Positions 6,355-17,603 of a stretch of 17,880 bases of DNA are shown here, one piece after another; position 1 is the stretch's first letter, and the number at the start of each line of letters is the position of its first letter. Position numbers and translations under genes: made by a program. The notes beneath the pieces were generated by a model. It saw only the letters and a list, made by a program, of their open reading frames with translations. It had not been told where the DNA came from and searched no databases. Source of the stretch: Candidatus Heimdallarchaeota archaeon (GTDB taxonomy: Archaea; Asgardarchaeota; Heimdallarchaeia; Heimdallarchaeales; Heimdallarchaeaceae); the NCBI GenBank assembly GCA_030668825.1, contig DAOVET010000048.1, forward strand, positions 1-17,880, in the 5' to 3' direction.

Positions 6355-9243
6355 ATGAGACTCAAAAAAATAATTCCAGTAATATTTTTACTCTATATGC
6401 TAATATTTCTTAAATCTCCTTTAGTTGATAGTAATGATTCCACATCTATTGTTGATATTAATGGCAATGAAATCATAAAAGATCTAAATGAAGAAGAGGT
6501 AAAGAAAGGAATTGAAATCACTGATAGTTCTGGGTTTCTAAAAAATAGTCAAGCTGAGCTAGATGAGGAAATATCAGCAAGCAATGAGGAAAATTCAATA
6601 GAGGATGCGTTAAATGGTTTCAGTCCAAATATAAGTTTGACGGGAAATTATGTGGGGGAATCCTTAGAAGGAAATTTTGAAGATGAAAACTCAAGTATTT
6701 TCTTACCTAGCAACGGACAATATTCACTAGAAGGAAATATTACTGATTTACAAGCTCAATACATTAATAATCCAGGGGCGGAGGATAGTCAAGAATTCTA
6801 TTCAGAAGGTGCTATTAAAGCTGGAGTAGAAGTTGAAAGATTGCATTATTCCGGAAGCTGGGATGGGGAGTATGTATGGAAATTCTATTCTTACAATTCT
6901 GAATCCATAATGTATGCACTTAATCAAAAAGACATAAGTTTATACAATACTAATACAAAAATATCTTATAATTATCTTCTAGCATCAAACTCAAGCTTAC
7001 AGTATGTGTTAAATTCATCTTTAATTTTTGATTTTGTTTTTGATACTTGTCGTATTATGGTGATTCATTGGCACTACACAGATGTGGAACCACCATCAAT
7101 TGGAGATAATACAACATCGCCATTCATAGTATATAGGCTATTACAAAACAGTAGCTGGGACAATCAATGGAACGATTATACGCTTTATATGAGTGATCTT
7201 TTTTCTGAAGAGGATCCTTTGATACCCACAATGCTAAAATCATTTGGAATTTATGTGATATCTCCTGAGGTTTCGGATTGTACAGTTCTATTTGATGATT
7301 TAAAACTCGAAACCTCATTAACACCTTCAGATATTGATCTAAGATTAAATGACATACAGATAAGTTCAGCAAACATGGGGGAAGGGAATTTTAATGCAGA
7401 TATCTTATTTGAGGGGATAGCACCCTATGAATATAATTTAGGTTGGTATCACAATTCAAATTATAAAATAAGTGCTAATTTCACAGTAAGGGCGTCAGGT
7501 GTAGTATCCATACTGTATGAAAAACAAATCTCTTTTCAAAATGAAACATCTATTCTACTTTCTATCTCAATTAATAATCTTTCACTACTTGTAAACCCAG
7601 TCAATTTTTCGTATCCTAATAATTGGTTGATGACAGGAAGTCTACAAGGTGCAGATATTTTGATTGATATCGATACAGGAGGAGGATATCGGAATCTTTC
7701 GTTAACAAGAAAAGCTGGAATCTATGATATTAATTTTCAGTTCATTCTACCGAACCAAATAAAGTCTACAAGTATCGAAAATTTAACTATTTTCGAAACT
7801 CTAAATGCCACATTTATCTTTCGAGAAACACTTCAAAATAACTTAATTGAGCTGTTCTGGGTTGGTGCTGAAAATGGAAGTGCAATGGGTGAGTTAGTAA
7901 ATGATGAATTAGAATTTACCTTTCCGCCAGGGATTACAAGTGGAAGTGTTGAGATAACGTTCCTTGTAATCGAAAACAATCTAATAGGGTATGAAAATGC
8001 CACTGTAACTCTAATGAGAGAAGCTTCGGAATTAATAGTTGAACAAGAAATTAATATTCCAAAATATGCGTTGAAAGAAATAAGTGTGTCTTATCTCAGC
8101 CTTAATCATCTAGTGGAAATTGAAAATGCTACCATTAATGGAATTTTGGATAATGAAGTTATTCCTAGTTTCATAATAGAAGGTCAATATGTTTTTAGAA
8201 TTTCTTCTTTCTATCTGACAGAAAATAACTATACATTGGAGATTCATGCTGAGTCCTCTTCTCATGCAACAATCCGAAAATCTGTTAATGTTTTGATTTA
8301 TGACAGTGAAATAAATGTAGATTTCGAGTATGAAAATGCAGAGATTTCATCAAATTTTCTTTTGCACTTCAATGTAACTTCCAATAATTCACCGGTTGGT
8401 CTAGTACCAATCACAATTGAAATCAATGAATATGAAGCTCACACTGGAGTTACTGACGAATATGGATTTTATACATATGTAATTTCTTTACCTCAAGATC
8501 TCCTTATTGTCAACATTAATTGTTCAATTTTCAAAGCTTATACACCAATTGTAATAAAGACATTTCAAATCTTGCTAGAAAATTTACTTATAACGGCTGA
8601 AAAAGGCTATGAAGATGTAATAATTACAGAGAATATTACGCTTACATATGATATTACTTATCCATCTGCACATGATAGGTGGGTATATTACATTAATGAT
8701 GATATGGTGCCACTTTTAGATGTTTATGTTGAAACAAATACCTTACAAATTCCTGTTCATGTGGATTCAGGTGCGCTCTATTGGCATATCCAAGCAGATT
8801 CTAGTATAGATGACCACAAATTGAAAATAACTACAATTGGTCCTAGTTTATTAGCTACGACAGAAGAGAATGATGATATAATCTCAATACACTTTATTAT
8901 TAATTCTGAGGTTAGAAGCTATTCTGATGTTTCCATGTTATATTATTTTAATGAAAGTTATTCTACTTCGAAATATGAGTGGAAGCTTATATCAAATGTT
9001 CAGGATGATGTAACTAGTTTGTATGAATTACAAGTAAACGATCTTTACGTTTATGCAACAAATCTGCAAATTACAAAGGGAAGTGCACTAATGCTTGATC
9101 TGGTGGGAACCAAGGTATCAAATACAAGATCTATAACAAACGTAGTAGTACCATTAGTATCAAGTTCAGGGGTACTTCTTGGTGCAATCACTGCCGTAAT
9201 TAAAATCTACAAGAAGAAAAAAGGAATGGTTCTCGAAATTTAA
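6355..9243 (+). CDS. Large membrane-anchored cell-surface protein, probable glycoprotein with beta-rich/Ig-like domains
   Basis: Signal peptide MRLKKIIPVIFLLYMLIFL, acidic beta-rich ectodomain, C-terminal TM followed by YKKKK; about 24 N-X-S/T sequons by hand count. Confidence 0.8.
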   Translation: MRLKKIIPVIFLLYMLIFLKSPLVDSNDSTSIVDINGNEIIKDLNEEEVKKGIEITDSSGFLKNSQAELDEEISASNEENSIEDALNGFSPNISLTGNYVGESLEGNFEDENSSIFLPSNGQYSLEGNITDLQAQYINNPGAEDSQEFYSEGAIKAGVEVERLHYSGSWDGEYVWKFYSYNSESIMYALNQKDISLYNTNTKISYNYLLASNSSLQYVLNSSLIFDFVFDTCRIMVIHWHYTDVEPPSIGDNTTSPFIVYRLLQNSSWDNQWNDYTLYMSDLFSEEDPLIPTMLKSFGIYVISPEVSDCTVLFDDLKLETSLTPSDIDLRLNDIQISSANMGEGNFNADILFEGIAPYEYNLGWYHNSNYKISANFTVRASGVVSILYEKQISFQNETSILLSISINNLSLLVNPVNFSYPNNWLMTGSLQGADILIDIDTGGGYRNLSLTRKAGIYDINFQFILPNQIKSTSIENLTIFETLNATFIFRETLQNNLIELFWVGAENGSAMGELVNDELEFTFPPGITSGSVEITFLVIENNLIGYENATVTLMREASELIVEQEINIPKYALKEISVSYLSLNHLVEIENATINGILDNEVIPSFIIEGQYVFRISSFYLTENNYTLEIHAESSSHATIRKSVNVLIYDSEINVDFEYENAEISSNFLLHFNVTSNNSPVGLVPITIEINEYEAHTGVTDEYGFYTYVISLPQDLLIVNINCSIFKAYTPIVIKTFQILLENLLITAEKGYEDVIITENITLTYDITYPSAHDRWVYYINDDMVPLLDVYVETNTLQIPVHVDSGALYWHIQADSSIDDHKLKITTIGPSLLATTEENDDIISIHFIINSEVRSYSDVSMLYYFNESYSTSKYEWKLISNVQDDVTSLYELQVNDLYVYATNLQITKGSALMLDLVGTKVSNTRSITNVVVPLVSSSGVLLGAITAVIKIYKKKKGMVLEI

Positions 9244-9247
9244 GCAT

Positions 9248-9358
9248 TTAAGTTGCTTCTTCCTCTTTTCCTACACTAAATGCATGGTAAAACAGTGCAA
9301 AAATGACAGCAATTATAATTATAATAATTATCACGGTTTTTATTATTGTGAAATCCAT
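9248..9358 (-). CDS. 36-aa single-TM peptide, OST4-like (putative minimal OST subunit)
   Basis: Hand translation MDFTIIKTVIIIIIIIAVIFALFYHAFSVGKEEEAT*; one TM ending in YH at residues 24-25; own BRE-TATA promoter; fills the gap between rpa and the surface-protein gene. Confidence 0.6.
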   Translation of the reverse strand: MDFTIIKTVIIIIIIIAVIFALFYHAFSVGKEEEAT

Positions 9359-9412: not shown

Positions 9413-9420
9413 AAAAAAAA
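9413..9420 (-). terminator. Oligo-T terminator of rpa
   Basis: T8 tract on the minus strand about 11 nt after the rpa stop. Confidence 0.5.
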
Positions 9421-9431
9421 GGTAAGGGTTT

Positions 9432-11552
9432 CTATTCAGTATAAATCTGCTTTACCATGTTTTTGGTTGTTTCTGCATATCTAACCTTCTCTATTGATTT
9501 AGCAATTAGTTCTAAGCTTTTAAGATAAAGATTTTGATTTACTTTGCCACTTATTATCAATTCTGAGTTAACAAAATTATTAGCTTTCAAAAAGGAATAA
9601 GGCGCTTTTTCTGATTCATTTTCCTCCACCATTCTTGCTGCAGTGTCAGCAGACAGTTCTAAGACAATTTCAGCCAATTTACCAGCGCATAGTACATTGA
9701 TATTTCCTGTTCCATCATTAGCAACGAAAGTAAAAAGAATACGATTTAATGGCTTATCAGTATCTCCATGCACTGCACAGTTGTAAGTATCATTTTCCTT
9801 TTTCATTTTCTTTTTACATTCAGGACATAATGGATAAACAAATTGTTTCTCTATGAGCTTCACTACAGTTGCTTGAATAGAAACTTCATCTCCTTCTTCA
9901 ATATCCTCTATATCTTTAATTTTCTCCAGGTCAATTTCAAGTGATGAAACCTCTAAGCTAGATACAAAGTCTTGAGGATTAGAAGGATTATTTAATGCTT
10001 TTTTTACAATTGAATTTTTACTGATTAACAATTCAGTTCCATAACCAGCGTCTTCTTTAACACCCGCATTATAAATTTCAACACTATCACCAATATTTAA
10101 ATCAGAAATCTTAGTTATATTTTCACGCCAACAAGTAATGCGAATGGTACCTGATTGGTCTTCAACTCTTAAGTTTCTTAGTTGAATGATTTCATCTTCT
10201 TTGGTTTTTATATCTTGAATTGGACTTAAATCACTTACAATACCTTGTATGTGTGCTTCCTTCATTTCGTCAGTGACATCTTTAATGTTTGTAAAATCTA
10301 ATAGATATTGGCTAATTGAATTGGAATCTATGCTCTCGACATCTACTCGTGTTTGATTTCCGCAATGAATCTCAATATCTGAATATCTTCCTTTTCTTGT
10401 AAAACCATTAATTATAGAAATGATTTTGTTTATGTCATTTTCATTTACTAGTTGAGTCTTATCATCCCATAAAACAACACGAATAATCCCTGTGCTGTCA
10501 GAAATTGTGATGTCTCTTACTTTACCTTTAGATCCATTTTCTCTGGAAAATTCATGTAAGGGATTCACATTAATCATCAAGCCTTTTGTTGATATAAGAG
10601 AACTTAATTCAGTAATCTGATTTATTGGTAATAATTGAGCAGCAATATCTGTTCCTGAGCCAATAAAGCCTTTTTTCACAATTATGTCAGCCAAATTGTC
10701 CCTCTTAACAATATTTGTGTATTTGCTTGAATGCAATTCTAGGTGTCCCTTTAATCCTACTTTTGAAGCTAATCTCACAACTTCAATAATATCCCCTAAA
10801 CCGATATCTTGAACATCATCAGCTTTTTCATTCCAGAAATTAACATAAATCTCTCCGGTTTCATCACCAAGGACTAAACCTTGTTTATTACCTTTTGAAC
10901 CATCAGACCTTTCAAATTCAAGGATGTCATCTTTTTGAGTTACCTTACCAATTAAAGAAAGATCAATCTCATTTCCTCTAATATTCTTAATTTTGGAAAA
11001 TTCAGATTCAAATACAGGTAATTCAGAATCATCAATACCTGAGGGTCTAATTTGAATTTGGCTTCTTATTCCTAAGTGTACCTCTACAGATTCATCCCGT
11101 CCGGCTTTTGTATAGCCATTTAAAATTCTTATTGGATCGCCTATTTTGCAGTTAGTGTCTTGTAACTCAACTACTTTCTGATCCCAAAACACAACGCGAA
11201 TTTTACCTGTTTTATCCTCAATGAGAACCGATTGCAAAACTCCATCGGAGCCATCTTTTTTCTTAAAATTATGTTGGTTGTAAATTCTATAAATACGACC
11301 AATTAGATTGACATTGTTTAGTTCCAGAACTAATTGATCGATACTTAAAGTGGTTTGTACCTGAATTGGAGGTTCTGAAGATAGGTCAACACCCATTTCC
11401 CTTGCTACAATATGAACAGCCCCAAGCTGTGTCACAAACTCCCCTAGTTCTTCCATCTTATCATTGATAAGTTGATGAATTTCTTCTTTTCCCATACTTG
11501 TTTCAGTTGAAATTATATCAACTATTTCCTTTAATGAGCGTTGACTTGACAT
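9432..11552 (-). CDS. rpa: Replication protein A large subunit (ssDNA binding; 5 OB folds plus Zn finger)
   Basis: Five repeats of the OB-fold D.TG.I motif (EDKTGKIRVVFWD, GDETGEIYVNFWN, SDSTGIIRVVLWD, EDQSGTIRITCWR, NDGTGNINVLC); CPEC...CAVH Zn finger in the last OB fold; helical N-terminal domain; GGGAG RBS upstream. Confidence 0.92.
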   Translation of the reverse strand: MSSQRSLKEIVDIISTETSMGKEEIHQLINDKMEELGEFVTQLGAVHIVAREMGVDLSSEPPIQVQTTLSIDQLVLELNNVNLIGRIYRIYNQHNFKKKDGSDGVLQSVLIEDKTGKIRVVFWDQKVVELQDTNCKIGDPIRILNGYTKAGRDESVEVHLGIRSQIQIRPSGIDDSELPVFESEFSKIKNIRGNEIDLSLIGKVTQKDDILEFERSDGSKGNKQGLVLGDETGEIYVNFWNEKADDVQDIGLGDIIEVVRLASKVGLKGHLELHSSKYTNIVKRDNLADIIVKKGFIGSGTDIAAQLLPINQITELSSLISTKGLMINVNPLHEFSRENGSKGKVRDITISDSTGIIRVVLWDDKTQLVNENDINKIISIINGFTRKGRYSDIEIHCGNQTRVDVESIDSNSISQYLLDFTNIKDVTDEMKEAHIQGIVSDLSPIQDIKTKEDEIIQLRNLRVEDQSGTIRITCWRENITKISDLNIGDSVEIYNAGVKEDAGYGTELLISKNSIVKKALNNPSNPQDFVSSLEVSSLEIDLEKIKDIEDIEEGDEVSIQATVVKLIEKQFVYPLCPECKKKMKKENDTYNCAVHGDTDKPLNRILFTFVANDGTGNINVLCAGKLAEIVLELSADTAARMVEENESEKAPYSFLKANNFVNSELIISGKVNQNLYLKSLELIAKSIEKVRYAETTKNMVKQIYTE

Positions 11553-11569: not shown

Positions 11570-12835
11570 TTAATTTGTATAAATCTTTTGATTGGATTGT
11601 GATATTAAATTCACTGCTTTTTTTCCTACAACTAGGAAAATCTCTGAGTGATTCTTGAGTTTTGAATTAATAAAGGCAAAATCACTAGGAAAAATAGACA
11701 TGAAAGAGAACCATTTACTATTGGTTTCCATGTTTTGAACTTCATATGATTTAACAAACGGTACTTTGTTGTAAAACTCAAGAAGTTCTCTTGGGGATAT
11801 AATTACAAGAGCCATCAATTCATCATTTTCCACAATGATTTGAGGTTGGATTAATCCTCTATCCTTAAGTTTAGATTTAATTCTAAATAATGTTCTAATG
11901 GAAACGTTGTTTTCTTTTGCTATCTTTTTAATATTTGGTCTTCTAAAATCCGTTTCACAGTTCTTCATGAGTTGTAGGACGTGGTTTTTACTTGATGTAG
12001 GAACATAAAAATTATCTAAATCTTTCTCTCGATTCAAGTTTTTCGAAGTTTTCTTAGATTTATTTACAGAAATCCAATCCTGAAACGAAAGACCACGGTT
12101 CAATATTTCTGTGTTACAAACTATTTTTTTGTTTATAACTTGATAAATGTAAGGTCGTTTAATCTCTTGAGAAGATAAACCATGGAAGAGTTTGAAATCT
12201 GGAAACAAAGTTATTTTATCTAAGAATTTAAGCTTATTGTTCGAATTTTCAATTTCAGTGAAACCAAAGAATTCATAGGCATCTATTGGAGAATAATCGG
12301 CAAAACAACCAAGAAAAACGCCTCTTGATTTCAGGGAATTAATTATATTGCTTATTTTTTTCTCTGAAATATTTAGCTCGTTTGCTAAATCCTTATTGAG
12401 AATATTGGGGTTTTTATCAAGCCTTTCTATTACTTTCCTTTCCACAAAATCTAGTTTTACTTTCCTCTTATTTGTCAATAGATTTGTCTCAAAAAATTGA
12501 ACAACCCCACTTAAATTCATTCTTCTCGAATAAATGTAATCATGAAAGTTTTTCATTTCAATCCAAAAATCTTTATAATTAGTAAACTTCCAGAATTCAT
12601 TCACTTGCACATTTTTTTCATTATAACAATATCTTAGAAAAATATTAGTAAACTTATCTCTTAAATTCTGATTAAATCTAGGAAAGCTATCTCTAAAAAG
12701 ATTCTTAGCCATAGTTTGGGAATATTCATTAATCTCAAATCTAAAGTCAGCTATATCTATTTCACCATTAAATAATGATTTTAGCAATCTAAGAGCTTCC
12801 GTACTAGTACCATATGCTCTCTGAACATTCATCAT
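11570..12835 (-). CDS. Transcriptional regulator with two winged-HTH domains (Lrp/AsnC-like tandem)
   Basis: HTH1 ILNKDLANELNISEKKISNIINSLKSRG; HTH2 NIKKIAKENNVSIRTLFRIKSKLKDRGLI. Start moved to ATG 12835/12832 because the longer ORF overlaps the upstream gene and its terminator. Confidence 0.72.
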   Translation of the reverse strand: MMNVQRAYGTSTEALRLLKSLFNGEIDIADFRFEINEYSQTMAKNLFRDSFPRFNQNLRDKFTNIFLRYCYNEKNVQVNEFWKFTNYKDFWIEMKNFHDYIYSRRMNLSGVVQFFETNLLTNKRKVKLDFVERKVIERLDKNPNILNKDLANELNISEKKISNIINSLKSRGVFLGCFADYSPIDAYEFFGFTEIENSNNKLKFLDKITLFPDFKLFHGLSSQEIKRPYIYQVINKKIVCNTEILNRGLSFQDWISVNKSKKTSKNLNREKDLDNFYVPTSSKNHVLQLMKNCETDFRRPNIKKIAKENNVSIRTLFRIKSKLKDRGLIQPQIIVENDELMALVIISPRELLEFYNKVPFVKSYEVQNMETNSKWFSFMSIFPSDFAFINSKLKNHSEIFLVVGKKAVNLISQSNQKIYTN

Positions 12836-12854
12836 AAAAATAAAGCAATTTGAA

Positions 12855-12862
12855 TATTTATA
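12855..12862 (-). promoter_or_regulatory. TATA box for the regulator-rpa unit (probably leaderless)
   Basis: TATAAATA on the minus strand, ending about 20-23 nt before the tandem ATGs, preceded by purine-rich AAAAAGTGGTG. Confidence 0.5.
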
Positions 12863-12875
12863 CACCACTTTTTGT

Positions 12876-12895
12876 AAAAGAAAAAAAACGAAAAA
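12876..12895 (-). terminator. T-rich terminator of the GIFT-domain gene
   Basis: TTTTTCGTTTTTTTTCTTTT on the minus strand about 20 nt after the stop at 12915. Confidence 0.5.
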
Positions 12896-12914
12896 TATGA
12901 AGAGAACTTGATAA

Positions 12915-14012
12915 TCACTTAATTGTAACAGTGATTTTTCTTTTATTTCTATATCTGAAAACAAGAATTGAAATACCAAAAATTACAGCAGAGAGAGCAA
13001 AAACAAGCAAAGCATAGTTCTCAAAAACCCATATTGCAGGAGGATCTCTTTCTAGATGAGGGGTATATTCCAAGAGCCAGAGAATGAGGTTGTTCCATAG
13101 TTCGAGATTCTGATTCTGTTCAATCCAAGTTGAATTTTCTGCAATCTCTAAGTCACTGAACATTATTGTTGAACCCGACATGACTAATCTGGTACCTTTA
13201 GTTTTTTTTGCAAAAAGCCAAGTAAGGAAACCATTGGTTGGATCTCTAAATATATCATATTCTTCGTTAATTGCGTATGATGTAATGGGTGTTTTTCCAA
13301 CTTGAACCATTTTTTCCAATGAGTCATCCTCCAGTCTTTCATTTCCTAATGAAATAGAGTCTGAATAAATCGTAACATTGTCAATTTTTGTTTCCTGCCA
13401 GAAGAAATCTATGTTTTCATTGAAAATTGTCTTTGTTGAATTATACTCATTAAATGTTACATGTGTTGCATTTCCATATGTACTATTAAAATCATCTACA
13501 ATTACTCTAGAAAGCGACTGGTTTGCTCCAAACATGAATCTTGCAGATGTTAACCAATTGTCTCTCTCATTTAGAAGTTCATTCATTGTAGTAGGATGAC
13601 CTGTTATATTATCTTGTTGAGTCAGTGGATTGCAAAGTAAAAATAAAGATCCACCAAGTTCTATGTAATCAAGGATTGCATCTTTCTCTGCTTGATCTAA
13701 GCTATCATCCTCTCCAAGTCCAGGGTTTGTAAAAATAAGCAAATCTACACCTTGAAGGTTTGTAGAATTAAACCTTGTTTCAGTTTGGAATATAAGTTCA
13801 ATTACAAGCTTAGTGTCCAGATCTTCAATTGTAATATTAGTAAGGGAGCTTAAAGCAGTATCCATAAAAGTCCTATTGAAAACTTGTCCATGTGATTCAT
13901 CAAAAAGAATTACATAATTCAGTGTCTGTTGACCAGAGATATCATATACGTAGGGTACATTTGTTACTGTTACCAAGCAGAGCAATAAGAATACTAAAGT
14001 GCGATTTTTCAT
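12915..14012 (-). CDS. Type I membrane protein with GIFT/DUF4350 (GATase-like) domain; WBP1/OST48-, IFT52- or GldG-related
   Basis: Signal peptide; ILFDESHGQ, DLLIFTNP, AILDYIELGGSLFLL, GTRLVMSGSTIMFSD, NLELWNNLILWL; C-terminal TM plus basic tail. Confidence 0.72.
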   Translation of the reverse strand: MKNRTLVFLLLCLVTVTNVPYVYDISGQQTLNYVILFDESHGQVFNRTFMDTALSSLTNITIEDLDTKLVIELIFQTETRFNSTNLQGVDLLIFTNPGLGEDDSLDQAEKDAILDYIELGGSLFLLCNPLTQQDNITGHPTTMNELLNERDNWLTSARFMFGANQSLSRVIVDDFNSTYGNATHVTFNEYNSTKTIFNENIDFFWQETKIDNVTIYSDSISLGNERLEDDSLEKMVQVGKTPITSYAINEEYDIFRDPTNGFLTWLFAKKTKGTRLVMSGSTIMFSDLEIAENSTWIEQNQNLELWNNLILWLLEYTPHLERDPPAIWVFENYALLVFALSAVIFGISILVFRYRNKRKITVTIK

Positions 14013-15505: not shown

Positions 15506-16153
15506 GTGATAGATTTGGCGCTTCGAGATTTACTGGAATACGGAACAATTCCTCAAGGTATAACCCATTTAGCGGGTCCTCCAAATTCAGGAAAAACAAC
15601 GCTACTTTATCAGACATGTAGAGGTCTAAAAGGGAAGAAAGCGCTATTTTTTGACTGTGAGATAAATTTTAGTGCACAAAGATTAATGGAAGTTAATCTG
15701 AATTACAAGGTTGAACTAAAAAATATCACCGTTATTAGTTTATTTAATAAGAGTCAACAAATTAAAACATTGATGAAGGTTCATAATTTTATTTCAAACA
15801 CAGATTACACATTCATAGCAATTAATGGGATAACGAATCATTTTAGATTTAGAAGCACAAATATCAATGAAATGAGTATATATAAGCTACTAACATTGCA
15901 AATGGCATACCTAAACATGATTAGCAAAGAATATCAGGTTCCTATTTTAATAACAAATCAAGTTACTGCTTTCAGAGAAAAGGATAAGAGAACTATTAGA
16001 CCTGTAGCAAATTCAGCTATAATGAATTATTCAGACAGAGAAATTAAATTAAAATATGTTAATAAAAAACTGTGGAAAGCACAGCAAGAAAAAGAGGAAA
16101 TTTTTTATAAAATAACTAATGATGGTCTTGAAACCATTAAAAGTAGGTATTAA
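15506..16153 (+). CDS. radB: RadB-like RecA/Rad51 paralogue
   Basis: Walker A GPPNSGKTT, FFDCEINFSAQRL, ISKEYQVPILITNQV; no N-terminal HhH domain; Walker B reads IAING instead of hhhDS. Confidence 0.72.
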   Translation: MIDLALRDLLEYGTIPQGITHLAGPPNSGKTTLLYQTCRGLKGKKALFFDCEINFSAQRLMEVNLNYKVELKNITVISLFNKSQQIKTLMKVHNFISNTDYTFIAINGITNHFRFRSTNINEMSIYKLLTLQMAYLNMISKEYQVPILITNQVTAFREKDKRTIRPVANSAIMNYSDREIKLKYVNKKLWKAQQEKEEIFYKITNDGLETIKSRY

Positions 16154-16584
16154 CCCACTAATAATTTAGCTCTAAAAATCAATAATACAGCAATGTACCA
16201 TACAACTACTAGGATTGTTCCAATCAACTCAACTTTTTGAGCAGTTCCAACATCAAAAGCAAATTTTGTTGCATGATCAAGCAAATATAGACTTACTGCG
16301 GCGAAAACCAATATAAATCCTATAACTAATCCTTCAATTAGATATTGTGTATGTATTGACCGTGCAATGAAAAGAGGGCTATTACCAAATTGGCCTATAC
16401 TAATCAGAACATCCTGATTTACAACCATATATGCCCCTCCTCCAAAGATATAGAATACAATCCCATATATGAGAACATAAATTAAACTTCTGGGAATTTG
16501 TTTTGGCATACGAATTGATATTCGATGCAGATTGAAATTAGGTCTGCGAATTCCAGGTAGTAACCAAGGTAATCTTCTAGCCAT
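16150..16584 (-). CDS. Oligosaccharyltransferase subunit OSTC/DC2 homologue (OST3/OST6 family, TM part only)
   Basis: 144 aa, three TMs; motifs RLPW...PNFNL...RMP, FGGGAY, FIA....QYLIEGL, LLD and FRAKL match remembered DC2 motifs (RVPF..PNLKL..HMP, TGGIIY, FLA....QYIMEGL, ILD, RMKL). Confidence 0.85.
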   Translation of the reverse strand: MARRLPWLLPGIRRPNFNLHRISIRMPKQIPRSLIYVLIYGIVFYIFGGGAYMVVNQDVLISIGQFGNSPLFIARSIHTQYLIEGLVIGFILVFAAVSLYLLDHATKFAFDVGTAQKVELIGTILVVVWYIAVLLIFRAKLLVG

Positions 16585-16674: not shown

Positions 16675-16708
16675 ATTATCCCTTGAAGATTATCCCTTGA
16701 AGATTATC
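16675..16708. repeat. Perfect 14-bp tandem repeat, 2.4 copies (ATTATCCCTTGAAG)
   Basis: 16675-16688 is identical to 16689-16702, followed by ATTATC at 16703-16708; spans the stop codon of the winged-helix gene. Confidence 0.95.
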
Positions 16709-17448
16709 TTTTTCTCCAAAGGATAAATAACTAAACTACCTGGATTTTTATTAACATAACTTACAAGAAAAGGTTCAATATTAGTTGAAGGTACTTCTAG
16801 TTCAGAGGAGATTTCATCAAAAGATAATTCTTTTTCACTATCCAATTTATCCTCTAGAAACTCAGTAACAATATTTTCAAAGGTTTCTGAGCTTAAAAAC
16901 ACCAAATTATGTCTTAATACACCCTTTAGTATTTCATTTTCAATCATATTAGCAATAATCTGAGCAAAAGTGTCCACTTCTATCCCAAATTTTTTCTCAA
17001 ACTTTTGAATCTCATATTCTGGAACATTTGTTAAGGAAGAATCTATAGCATTTTGAAGATAAGTAATTGTGAAATATTTCTTATCACCAATAATTCCTTT
17101 TTCTAGATGATTCAACAATGGAAGTAAGGTTTTTTCTGTTACAGTCCAGCGATTCTTGATTAAGGATATTTCTACCATCCCTTGTTTCTTAAGTGAATTC
17201 CTGATTTCCGATAATTCCTCATCTAAAATGGAAAAGAAGTGAGATTTCTCCGGAAGAAAAACACCTGCCACTTTTCTTTTTGAAAGTAAGTCGCTAATCG
17301 CTACATAGCGTTTTTCCAAAGAAAGGTTTGATTGAATCTTTCTTATATTAATGAAATTGATTGTTTCTAACTCCTCTAATATTGTTCTAGTGAATTTTTT
17401 TTCCTCAGAAGCAAATAGATCTTTTATCTTTTGTAAAAATGAACTCAT
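16690..17448 (-). CDS. Tandem winged-helix (PCI-like) protein, UFL1/DDRGK1-like
   Basis: About four WH-type repeats (EIRNSLKKQGMVEISLIKNRW; IIANMIENEILKGVL; LSFDEISSELEVP) and an N-terminal amphipathic helix MSSFLQKIKDLF; ATG at 17448. Confidence 0.55.
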   Translation of the reverse strand: MSSFLQKIKDLFASEEKKFTRTILEELETINFINIRKIQSNLSLEKRYVAISDLLSKRKVAGVFLPEKSHFFSILDEELSEIRNSLKKQGMVEISLIKNRWTVTEKTLLPLLNHLEKGIIGDKKYFTITYLQNAIDSSLTNVPEYEIQKFEKKFGIEVDTFAQIIANMIENEILKGVLRHNLVFLSSETFENIVTEFLEDKLDSEKELSFDEISSELEVPSTNIEPFLVSYVNKNPGSLVIYPLEKKIIFKG

Positions 17449-17603
17449 TATACTCAAGAATGATAATTTCGTTTCTTTTCTAAAATGTTACTCTTTGTGT
17501 TCATTCTCAAATTGAACAATTAAAGCTTAGAGCGATTGACATGATAATTTACTCCCAAATAGAAATTGTGGAGTTTATTTAGGTTGTTAGTGTATAACTA
17601 TAG

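Follow-up and report, generated by a model that had tools for sequence, protein, structure and literature searches.

The stretch of DNA analysed here (the window, 17,880 nt from a genome of the Heimdallarchaeaceae) carries at positions 9248 to 9358, on the minus strand, an open reading frame of 36 codons plus stop for a single-pass membrane micropeptide. Comparison across genomes shows the peptide to be translated, encoded in single copy and widely conserved with an invariant histidine, and its translation, its 24 orthologues under purifying selection and the matches to a family profile make it nearly certain that the gene is real. The reading that we prefer, with a probability of roughly 0.55, is that this is an archaeal counterpart of the eukaryotic OST subunit Ost4, encoded by a separately transcribed single-pass gene. 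It is a plausible reading that rests on motif, register, architecture and context, without significant sequence similarity, and we infer topology, partner and function from it. The helix would pack against the membrane domain of the catalytic STT3/AglB, where it would stabilise STT3 and help to hold an Ost3/6-like membrane protein, and the core of the contact would be formed by the invariant Leu-x-Tyr-His, which stands where the helix ends on its C-terminal, presumably cytoplasmic, side.

The gene and its conservation within the genus

The ORF runs from 9358 to 9248 on the minus strand, stop included, and its translation of 36 aa (MDFTIIKTVIIIIIIIAVIFALFYHAFSVGKEEEAT) is identical to that written in an earlier note on this DNA, which had proposed both the gene, missing from the list of ORFs, and its kinship to Ost4. 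It lies in a spacer of 188 nt between two stop codons. On one side is the upstream gene for a 706-aa RPA-like ssDNA-binding protein (9432 to 11552, minus strand, stop codon at 9434-9432), assigned through Pfam OB-fold families, and on the other a convergent 962-aa ORF (6355 to 9243, plus strand) that matches no Pfam family at E ≤ 0.01. The stop of the micropeptide gene is 4 nt from that of the 962-aa ORF, the same gap as had been counted before. The peptide is hydrophobic over roughly residues 4-28, with a 19-residue Kyte-Doolittle mean of up to 3.25, and so has the length and the single transmembrane (TM) helix that had been described as Ost4-like. Its core, F-[AG]-L-F-Y-H-A-F-S, is invariant and is followed by an acidic tail, GKEEE. 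As to the surroundings, genes of replication and repair are frequent in the window, namely an RFC small subunit (941-1918), the long RPA (9432-11552), a winged-helix protein (11570-12979) and a short Rad51/RadA-like ATPase (15506-16153); the long RPA carries an N-terminal DUF2240-like part, and the winged-helix protein has an MCM-WH-like match.

When 41 related genomes were searched in six frames, the micropeptide appeared at full length, with E ≤ 1.7e-11 and 68-94% identity, in 23 of the genus's 24 other genomes; the remaining one (G014, 82% complete) gave only a chance-level match. The ATG stands exactly 23 codons before the Tyr, and the stop is kept, in all 24 genus loci (our own and the 23 others). 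Averaged over the 276 pairs that can be made from the 24 genus orthologues, pS is 0.61 and pN 0.14 for the whole ORF, 0.57 and 0.23 for codons 1-19, and 0.685 and 0.037 for codons 20-34, and dN/dS is about 0.16 for pairs with unsaturated pS. Leu22, for instance, is invariant yet encoded by five different codons. Among the most distant congeners, identity is about 54% for the flanking RPA and about 40% for the 962-aa protein but about 70% for the micropeptide, whose C-terminal 15 residues are almost unchanged. The proposal of an unlisted single-TM micropeptide gene is thus borne out by conservation in relatives, on which the earlier note had made it depend, both in these congeners and, by profile, in further families.

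The gene also appears to have its own signals. A BRE-like element, CGAAAAGC (9403-9396, minus strand), is followed directly by a TATA-like octamer, TTATTAAT (9395-9388, minus strand; about -37 to -30 from the ATG), the two together lying some 30-45 nt 5′ of the ATG. The segment GAAAAGCTTATTAAT shows no difference among the 24 genus loci, in a spacer that diverges around it, CTTATTAA is retained in 30 of the 30 loci read from the family Heimdallarchaeaceae (f1), and boxes of the TTTAAA type occur at a similar distance in other families. A run of eight T (9413-9420, minus strand) lies 12 nt past the rpa stop codon, and most genus loci have T-runs in the corresponding position. The promoter and the terminator that had been claimed here are therefore present as elements, the first invariant across the genus, but their functions are inferred only: the BRE/TATA-like pair would serve as promoter of the micropeptide gene, and the T8 run is likely an archaeal oligo-T terminator separating it from rpa. 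The position of the octamer relative to the ATG points to transcription of the gene as a unit of its own, the leader being very short. Contigs from runs labelled RNA-Seq, which are probably DNA, do not contain the ORF, and a DNA contig from a related strain covers it; both are uninformative on expression.

Spread of the family and its Tyr-His core

We searched more widely with three profiles, A2 being built from 25 diverse members, A1 being narrower and A5 the widest, from an alignment of 39 rows. Of 400 Asgard genomes, 69 were matched by A2 at E ≤ 0.005, each by a single strong hit, and A1 gave the same picture of the distribution. Family by family, A2 matched 29/30 genomes in f1, 1/1 in f2, 12/12 in f3, 3/3 in f4, 8/12 in f7, 4/7 in f24 (which has a member named Njordarchaeia), 3/5 in f25, 3/19 in f12 and 0/22 in f5; the four matches among 135 genomes of f20 are weak and unconvincing. 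With A5 the family was not found in 21 of 22 genomes searched in the sister genus g14, the other (G075) having a plausible small ORF (E 6.7e-4).

Most members have 34-38 aa and one TM helix, with conservation at its C-terminal end and a variable tail, which is acidic in Heimdallarchaeia (EEE or EEADE) and strongly basic in the group named Njordarchaeia (KRKKK). His25 is invariant in the 39 rows of A5, and the Leu that stands three positions ahead of it nearly so. The 66 peptides that we collected have YH in 54 cases, FH in five, NH in three and HH in one, so that the Tyr-His expected among orthologues if the earlier proposal was right is indeed the rule. The three without His are weak matches from f31 whose membership of the family is doubtful. 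These f31 peptides (L091:280-387, L058:2501-2608, L059:2501-2602) have 34-36 aa, end in LGY[IV]AYG-EEEE, resemble the f7 form of the family apart from the missing His, and give weak matches to Pfam DUF4500 (best E 0.0017).

The register is kept as well. In the 47 loci that were read, the start codon stands 23-24 codons before the motif (27 in one locus), the Tyr being replaced by F, N or H in eight of them. In genera g3 and g6 the sole start at the conserved distance from YH is GTG rather than ATG (L027:2980-3093, L063:2492-2605, L065:2495-2608, L067:2501-2608). Members from f3 and f7 start with MID or MIS, carry a Gly in the middle of the helix and have YH at 25-26, and the genus of the window is one N-terminal residue shorter. 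The caveat first attached to the Ost4 proposal, that the N-terminal MI[ST]D and the mid-TM Gly are absent, thus holds for this genus but not for the family, and it is weakened by the relatives that carry both.

In public protein sets a word-indexed search gave 50 relatives; all lack a Pfam domain, no name goes beyond "hypothetical protein", and some are over-extended to 83-96 aa. A search among longer proteins returned only two over-extended calls, of 84 and 96 aa, and no fusion protein. A profile search of 1.84 billion representatives likewise gave no bridge to eukaryotes; its 15 matches at E ≤ 0.001 are all of 35-96 aa and family-like.

Gene neighbourhood and candidate partners

The gene order of the window is a property of one family. 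An rpa gene flanks the micropeptide gene only in genera g1, g10 and, in the other orientation, g13, and the 962-aa protein adjoins it throughout f1 (30-97% identity over the parts compared). Synteny with these two genes is confined to f1: none of 17 loci from families outside it has either neighbour. In the same 17 scanned loci (33 flanking proteins) neither STT3 nor any other glycosylation gene is adjacent, the neighbours being an Lhr-like helicase, TetR, a cytidylyltransferase-like protein, an NYN RNase and others. The cytidylyltransferase-like gene (CTP_transf_3/NTP_transf_3) adjoins the micropeptide gene in three f3 loci (L027:2132-2965, L065:1655-2485, L068:2767-3618), an adjacency that may reflect lineage synteny or a loose link to sugar activation.

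The subunits with which Ost4 would be expected to associate can be sought in the source genome itself. It has one STT3 of 758 aa with the WWDYG motif, whose close homologues, like one homologue of the micropeptide, bear database names that place the window in Heimdallarchaeaceae. Two further ORFs, 703 and 632 aa long, resemble ribophorin-I (Ost1) and exceed the Pfam cut-off (G000:C82:45491-46237 and G000:C95:274-1056). The window adds a 144-aa Ost3/Ost6-like membrane protein (16150 to 16584, minus strand), which we presume to be the third member of an STT3-Ost4-Ost3/6 subcomplex. It matches PF04756 over model positions 181-288 with E 4.1e-6 and 26.9 bits, the cut-off being 27, and scores 24.4 bits when the genome is searched in six frames. 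Models for DAD1, OST48 and Ost5 gave no match in the source genome; since the DAD1 and OST48 controls were also silent, the absence of these two says little. Homologues of the Ost3/6-like protein are found in all 10 micropeptide-bearing genomes tested. Its gene is 6.8 kb from the micropeptide gene here, and the two share a contig (7-43 kb apart) only in f1, lying on different contigs in five other genomes, which speaks for lineage synteny and not for functional linkage.

The match of the 144-aa protein is confined to the membrane part of the Pfam model. The N-terminal thioredoxin-like part is matched separately in the same genome (G000:C32:25608-26105, positions 12-175, 31.9 bits, with one TAA inside), and the Ost3/6 of this lineage may be split or consist of the membrane part only. 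A gene for a UFM1 E3 ligase-like (UFL1-like) protein with a weak DDRGK match (16690-17457, minus strand) immediately precedes the Ost3/6-like gene, and in Candidatus Heimdallarchaeum aukensis (G054) its homologue (L061:2873-3628, minus strand) lies directly upstream of the micropeptide gene instead.

Tests of the Ost4 reading and comparison with known systems

The Pfam model for Ost4, PF10215, has a gathering cut-off of 25 bits, and the micropeptide of the window does not match it at E ≤ 10. In six-frame searches nothing exceeded the cut-off in the 41 relatives or in the 400 Asgard genomes, and no listed match fell at a micropeptide locus. When 38 distinct family peptides were compared with the model, 37 gave no match at E ≤ 10 and one, L063 from genome G030, matched at E 0.044 (14.1 bits), its residues 10-30 aligning to model positions 10-30 with G15 and Y25-H26 in register. 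Judged from chance matches, the model appears to reward I-S-D at 2-4, G at 15 and Y-H at 25-26. Unrelated small-TM families score as well as Ost4 or better, FeoB_associated for instance matching six of 25 members (best E 0.0099). No Ost4 chain from the PDB was found at E ≤ 10 with profiles A1, A2 and A5 or with two single peptides, and for a homologue, P0021, the ESM Atlas gave only unnamed clusters and an MgtS-like peptide at 0.82, under the lead level of 0.9. The claim of an Ost4 counterpart hence draws on motif, register and architecture, and sequence statistics do not bear out the homology, PF10215 staying under its cut-off everywhere and the PDB yielding no Ost4 chain.

The best PF10215 matches in Asgard genomes (22-23 bits) were considered separately and rejected as noise. 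Either stops interrupt these frames or a usable start is missing, and they are unconserved, occurring in one of 22 genomes in g14 and in two of 135 in f20 (22.0-22.8 bits).

How far can the peptide be explained otherwise? That the ORF arose by chance in an AT-rich spacer, its conservation being that of a terminator, a promoter or some other element of the DNA or RNA, we regard as hardly credible. The G+C of the window is 31.5%, and an ATG ORF of at least 36 aa appears in 456 of 5000 shuffles (9%) of the spacer, taken as a 194-nt piece, so the ORF by itself proves nothing; it is conservation that makes the gene real. Synonymous sites are saturated where the amino acids are invariant, a codon pattern that effectively refutes chance, frame, start and stop are kept in every genus locus, and recognisable homologues in other families have different genomic surroundings. 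A small toxin or stress peptide that acts on membranes, similar to type I toxins, would suit a short, very hydrophobic product whose gene stands alone and has a promoter of its own. Loci for toxins, as a rule, are patchy in distribution and multicopy, whereas this gene has a single copy per genome and is conserved vertically through the whole order and beyond. Purifying selection is strong on its polar residues (Y, H, S, G, K and E), and no antisense or antitoxin feature was seen; we thus consider a toxin very improbable.

A more serious contender, though one that we lean against, is a conserved micropeptide unrelated to Ost4 that serves another membrane machine, such as a transporter or a respiratory or secretion complex, as a small accessory or regulatory subunit, and in which the Tyr-His would be convergent or coincidental. 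All the HMMER tests for Ost4 fail or stay at the level of noise, matches of similar strength are obtained to FeoB_associated, TRIQK, PsbT, CydH and MgtS-like peptides (single helices being easily alike), the neighbourhood offers no link to glycosylation, and the charge of the tail is opposite to that of animal OST4. However, no test suggests another partner, and the length, the position of the helix, the G15/Y25-H26 register and the location of the core all fit Ost4. The lineage also has partners of the eukaryotic type, and Ost4 homologues have been published for most Asgard classes, as noted below. It is on this balance that we favour a counterpart of Ost4.

An Ost4 in Asgard archaea is not a new idea. 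The earlier note knew of no description of this subunit in the group, a claim that falls with Eme et al. 2023 (Nature 618:992; PMC10307638), the excerpted text of which reports Asgard homologues of Ost2, Ost4, Ost5, Swp1 and Wbp1 and places Ost4 and Ost5 "in most Asgard archaeal classes". Going by that text, the micropeptide is at most an unannotated, somewhat derived form of a kind already reported. Among the matches listed in our literature search only this paper concerns Ost4 (other occurrences of "ost4" stand for OST48), and the excerpted text of a 2024 study of the MK-D1 translocon (PMC11417166) names only OST1, OST3/6 and STT3. The likeness to the Ost4 of Eme et al., which may be the same family, is one of stated distribution: the phylum is the same, and the distribution fits the spread across families of Heimdallarchaeia and members named Njordarchaeia. 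That the Tyr-His family is an Ost4 counterpart lying outside the published set seems rather unlikely to us.

Were the peptide Ost4, the catalytic subcomplex STT3-Ost4-Ost3/6 would predate eukaryotes and be present in the archaeal lineage closest to them, in support of the published view of a complex pre-eukaryotic translocon. Were it in addition outside the published set, Heimdallarchaeaceae would build a complete subcomplex II from STT3, the micropeptide and a membrane-only Ost3/6, and the invariant His, where the helix meets the cytoplasm, would be an ancestral contact residue of pre-eukaryotic age. As the public records that we examined leave the gene a "hypothetical protein" or unnamed, and sometimes over-extend it, it merits annotation and inclusion in any reconstitution of Asgard OST, for which the invariant His offers a simple mutational handle.

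Among known micropeptides, CydH/YnhF, PsbT and MgtS-like peptides are similar in having about 30-35 aa and one helix and were the top non-significant profile matches in the PDB and the Atlas. They differ in that the matches have E 0.8-10 or a cosine below 0.9 and no motif in common, and the complexes of CydH and PsbT (cytochrome bd and PSII) are not implicated for our peptide.

The comparison with eukaryotic Ost4/OST4 (PF10215; OST subcomplex II, Stt3-Ost4-Ost3/6) is closer. According to excerpts of published accounts (PMC3687696, PMC7226087, PMC6929149), OST4 has 36-37 aa with a TM helix at about residues 10-28, is conserved within its first 28 residues and variable in the tail, has its critical residues close to where the helix reaches the cytosol, adopts an N-out/C-in topology and is required for the incorporation of Ost3/6; the yeast helix is described as lying between TMH1 and TMH13 of Stt3 (PMC7226087). 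The micropeptide differs in staying under the Pfam cut-off in every test, in the lack, within the genus of the window, of the N-terminal Ile and the mid-helix Gly, and in its tail, which is acidic (GKEEE) and neither basic as in animal OST4 nor of the KKXX type. With an acidic tail and a neutral N-terminus the positive-inside rule is silent on topology in this genus, and the strongly basic, K/R-rich tails of the Njordarchaeial members fit a C-in topology. Tyr-His is presumably shared, as we take it to stand at the TM ends of yeast and human Ost4, and it is found at 24-25 in the micropeptide and at 25-26 in relatives. The other likenesses are of size, of a single TM helix, of a conserved core at the C-terminal end of that helix before a variable tail, and of the partner subunits, STT3 and an Ost3/6-like protein, both encoded in the same genome as the micropeptide.
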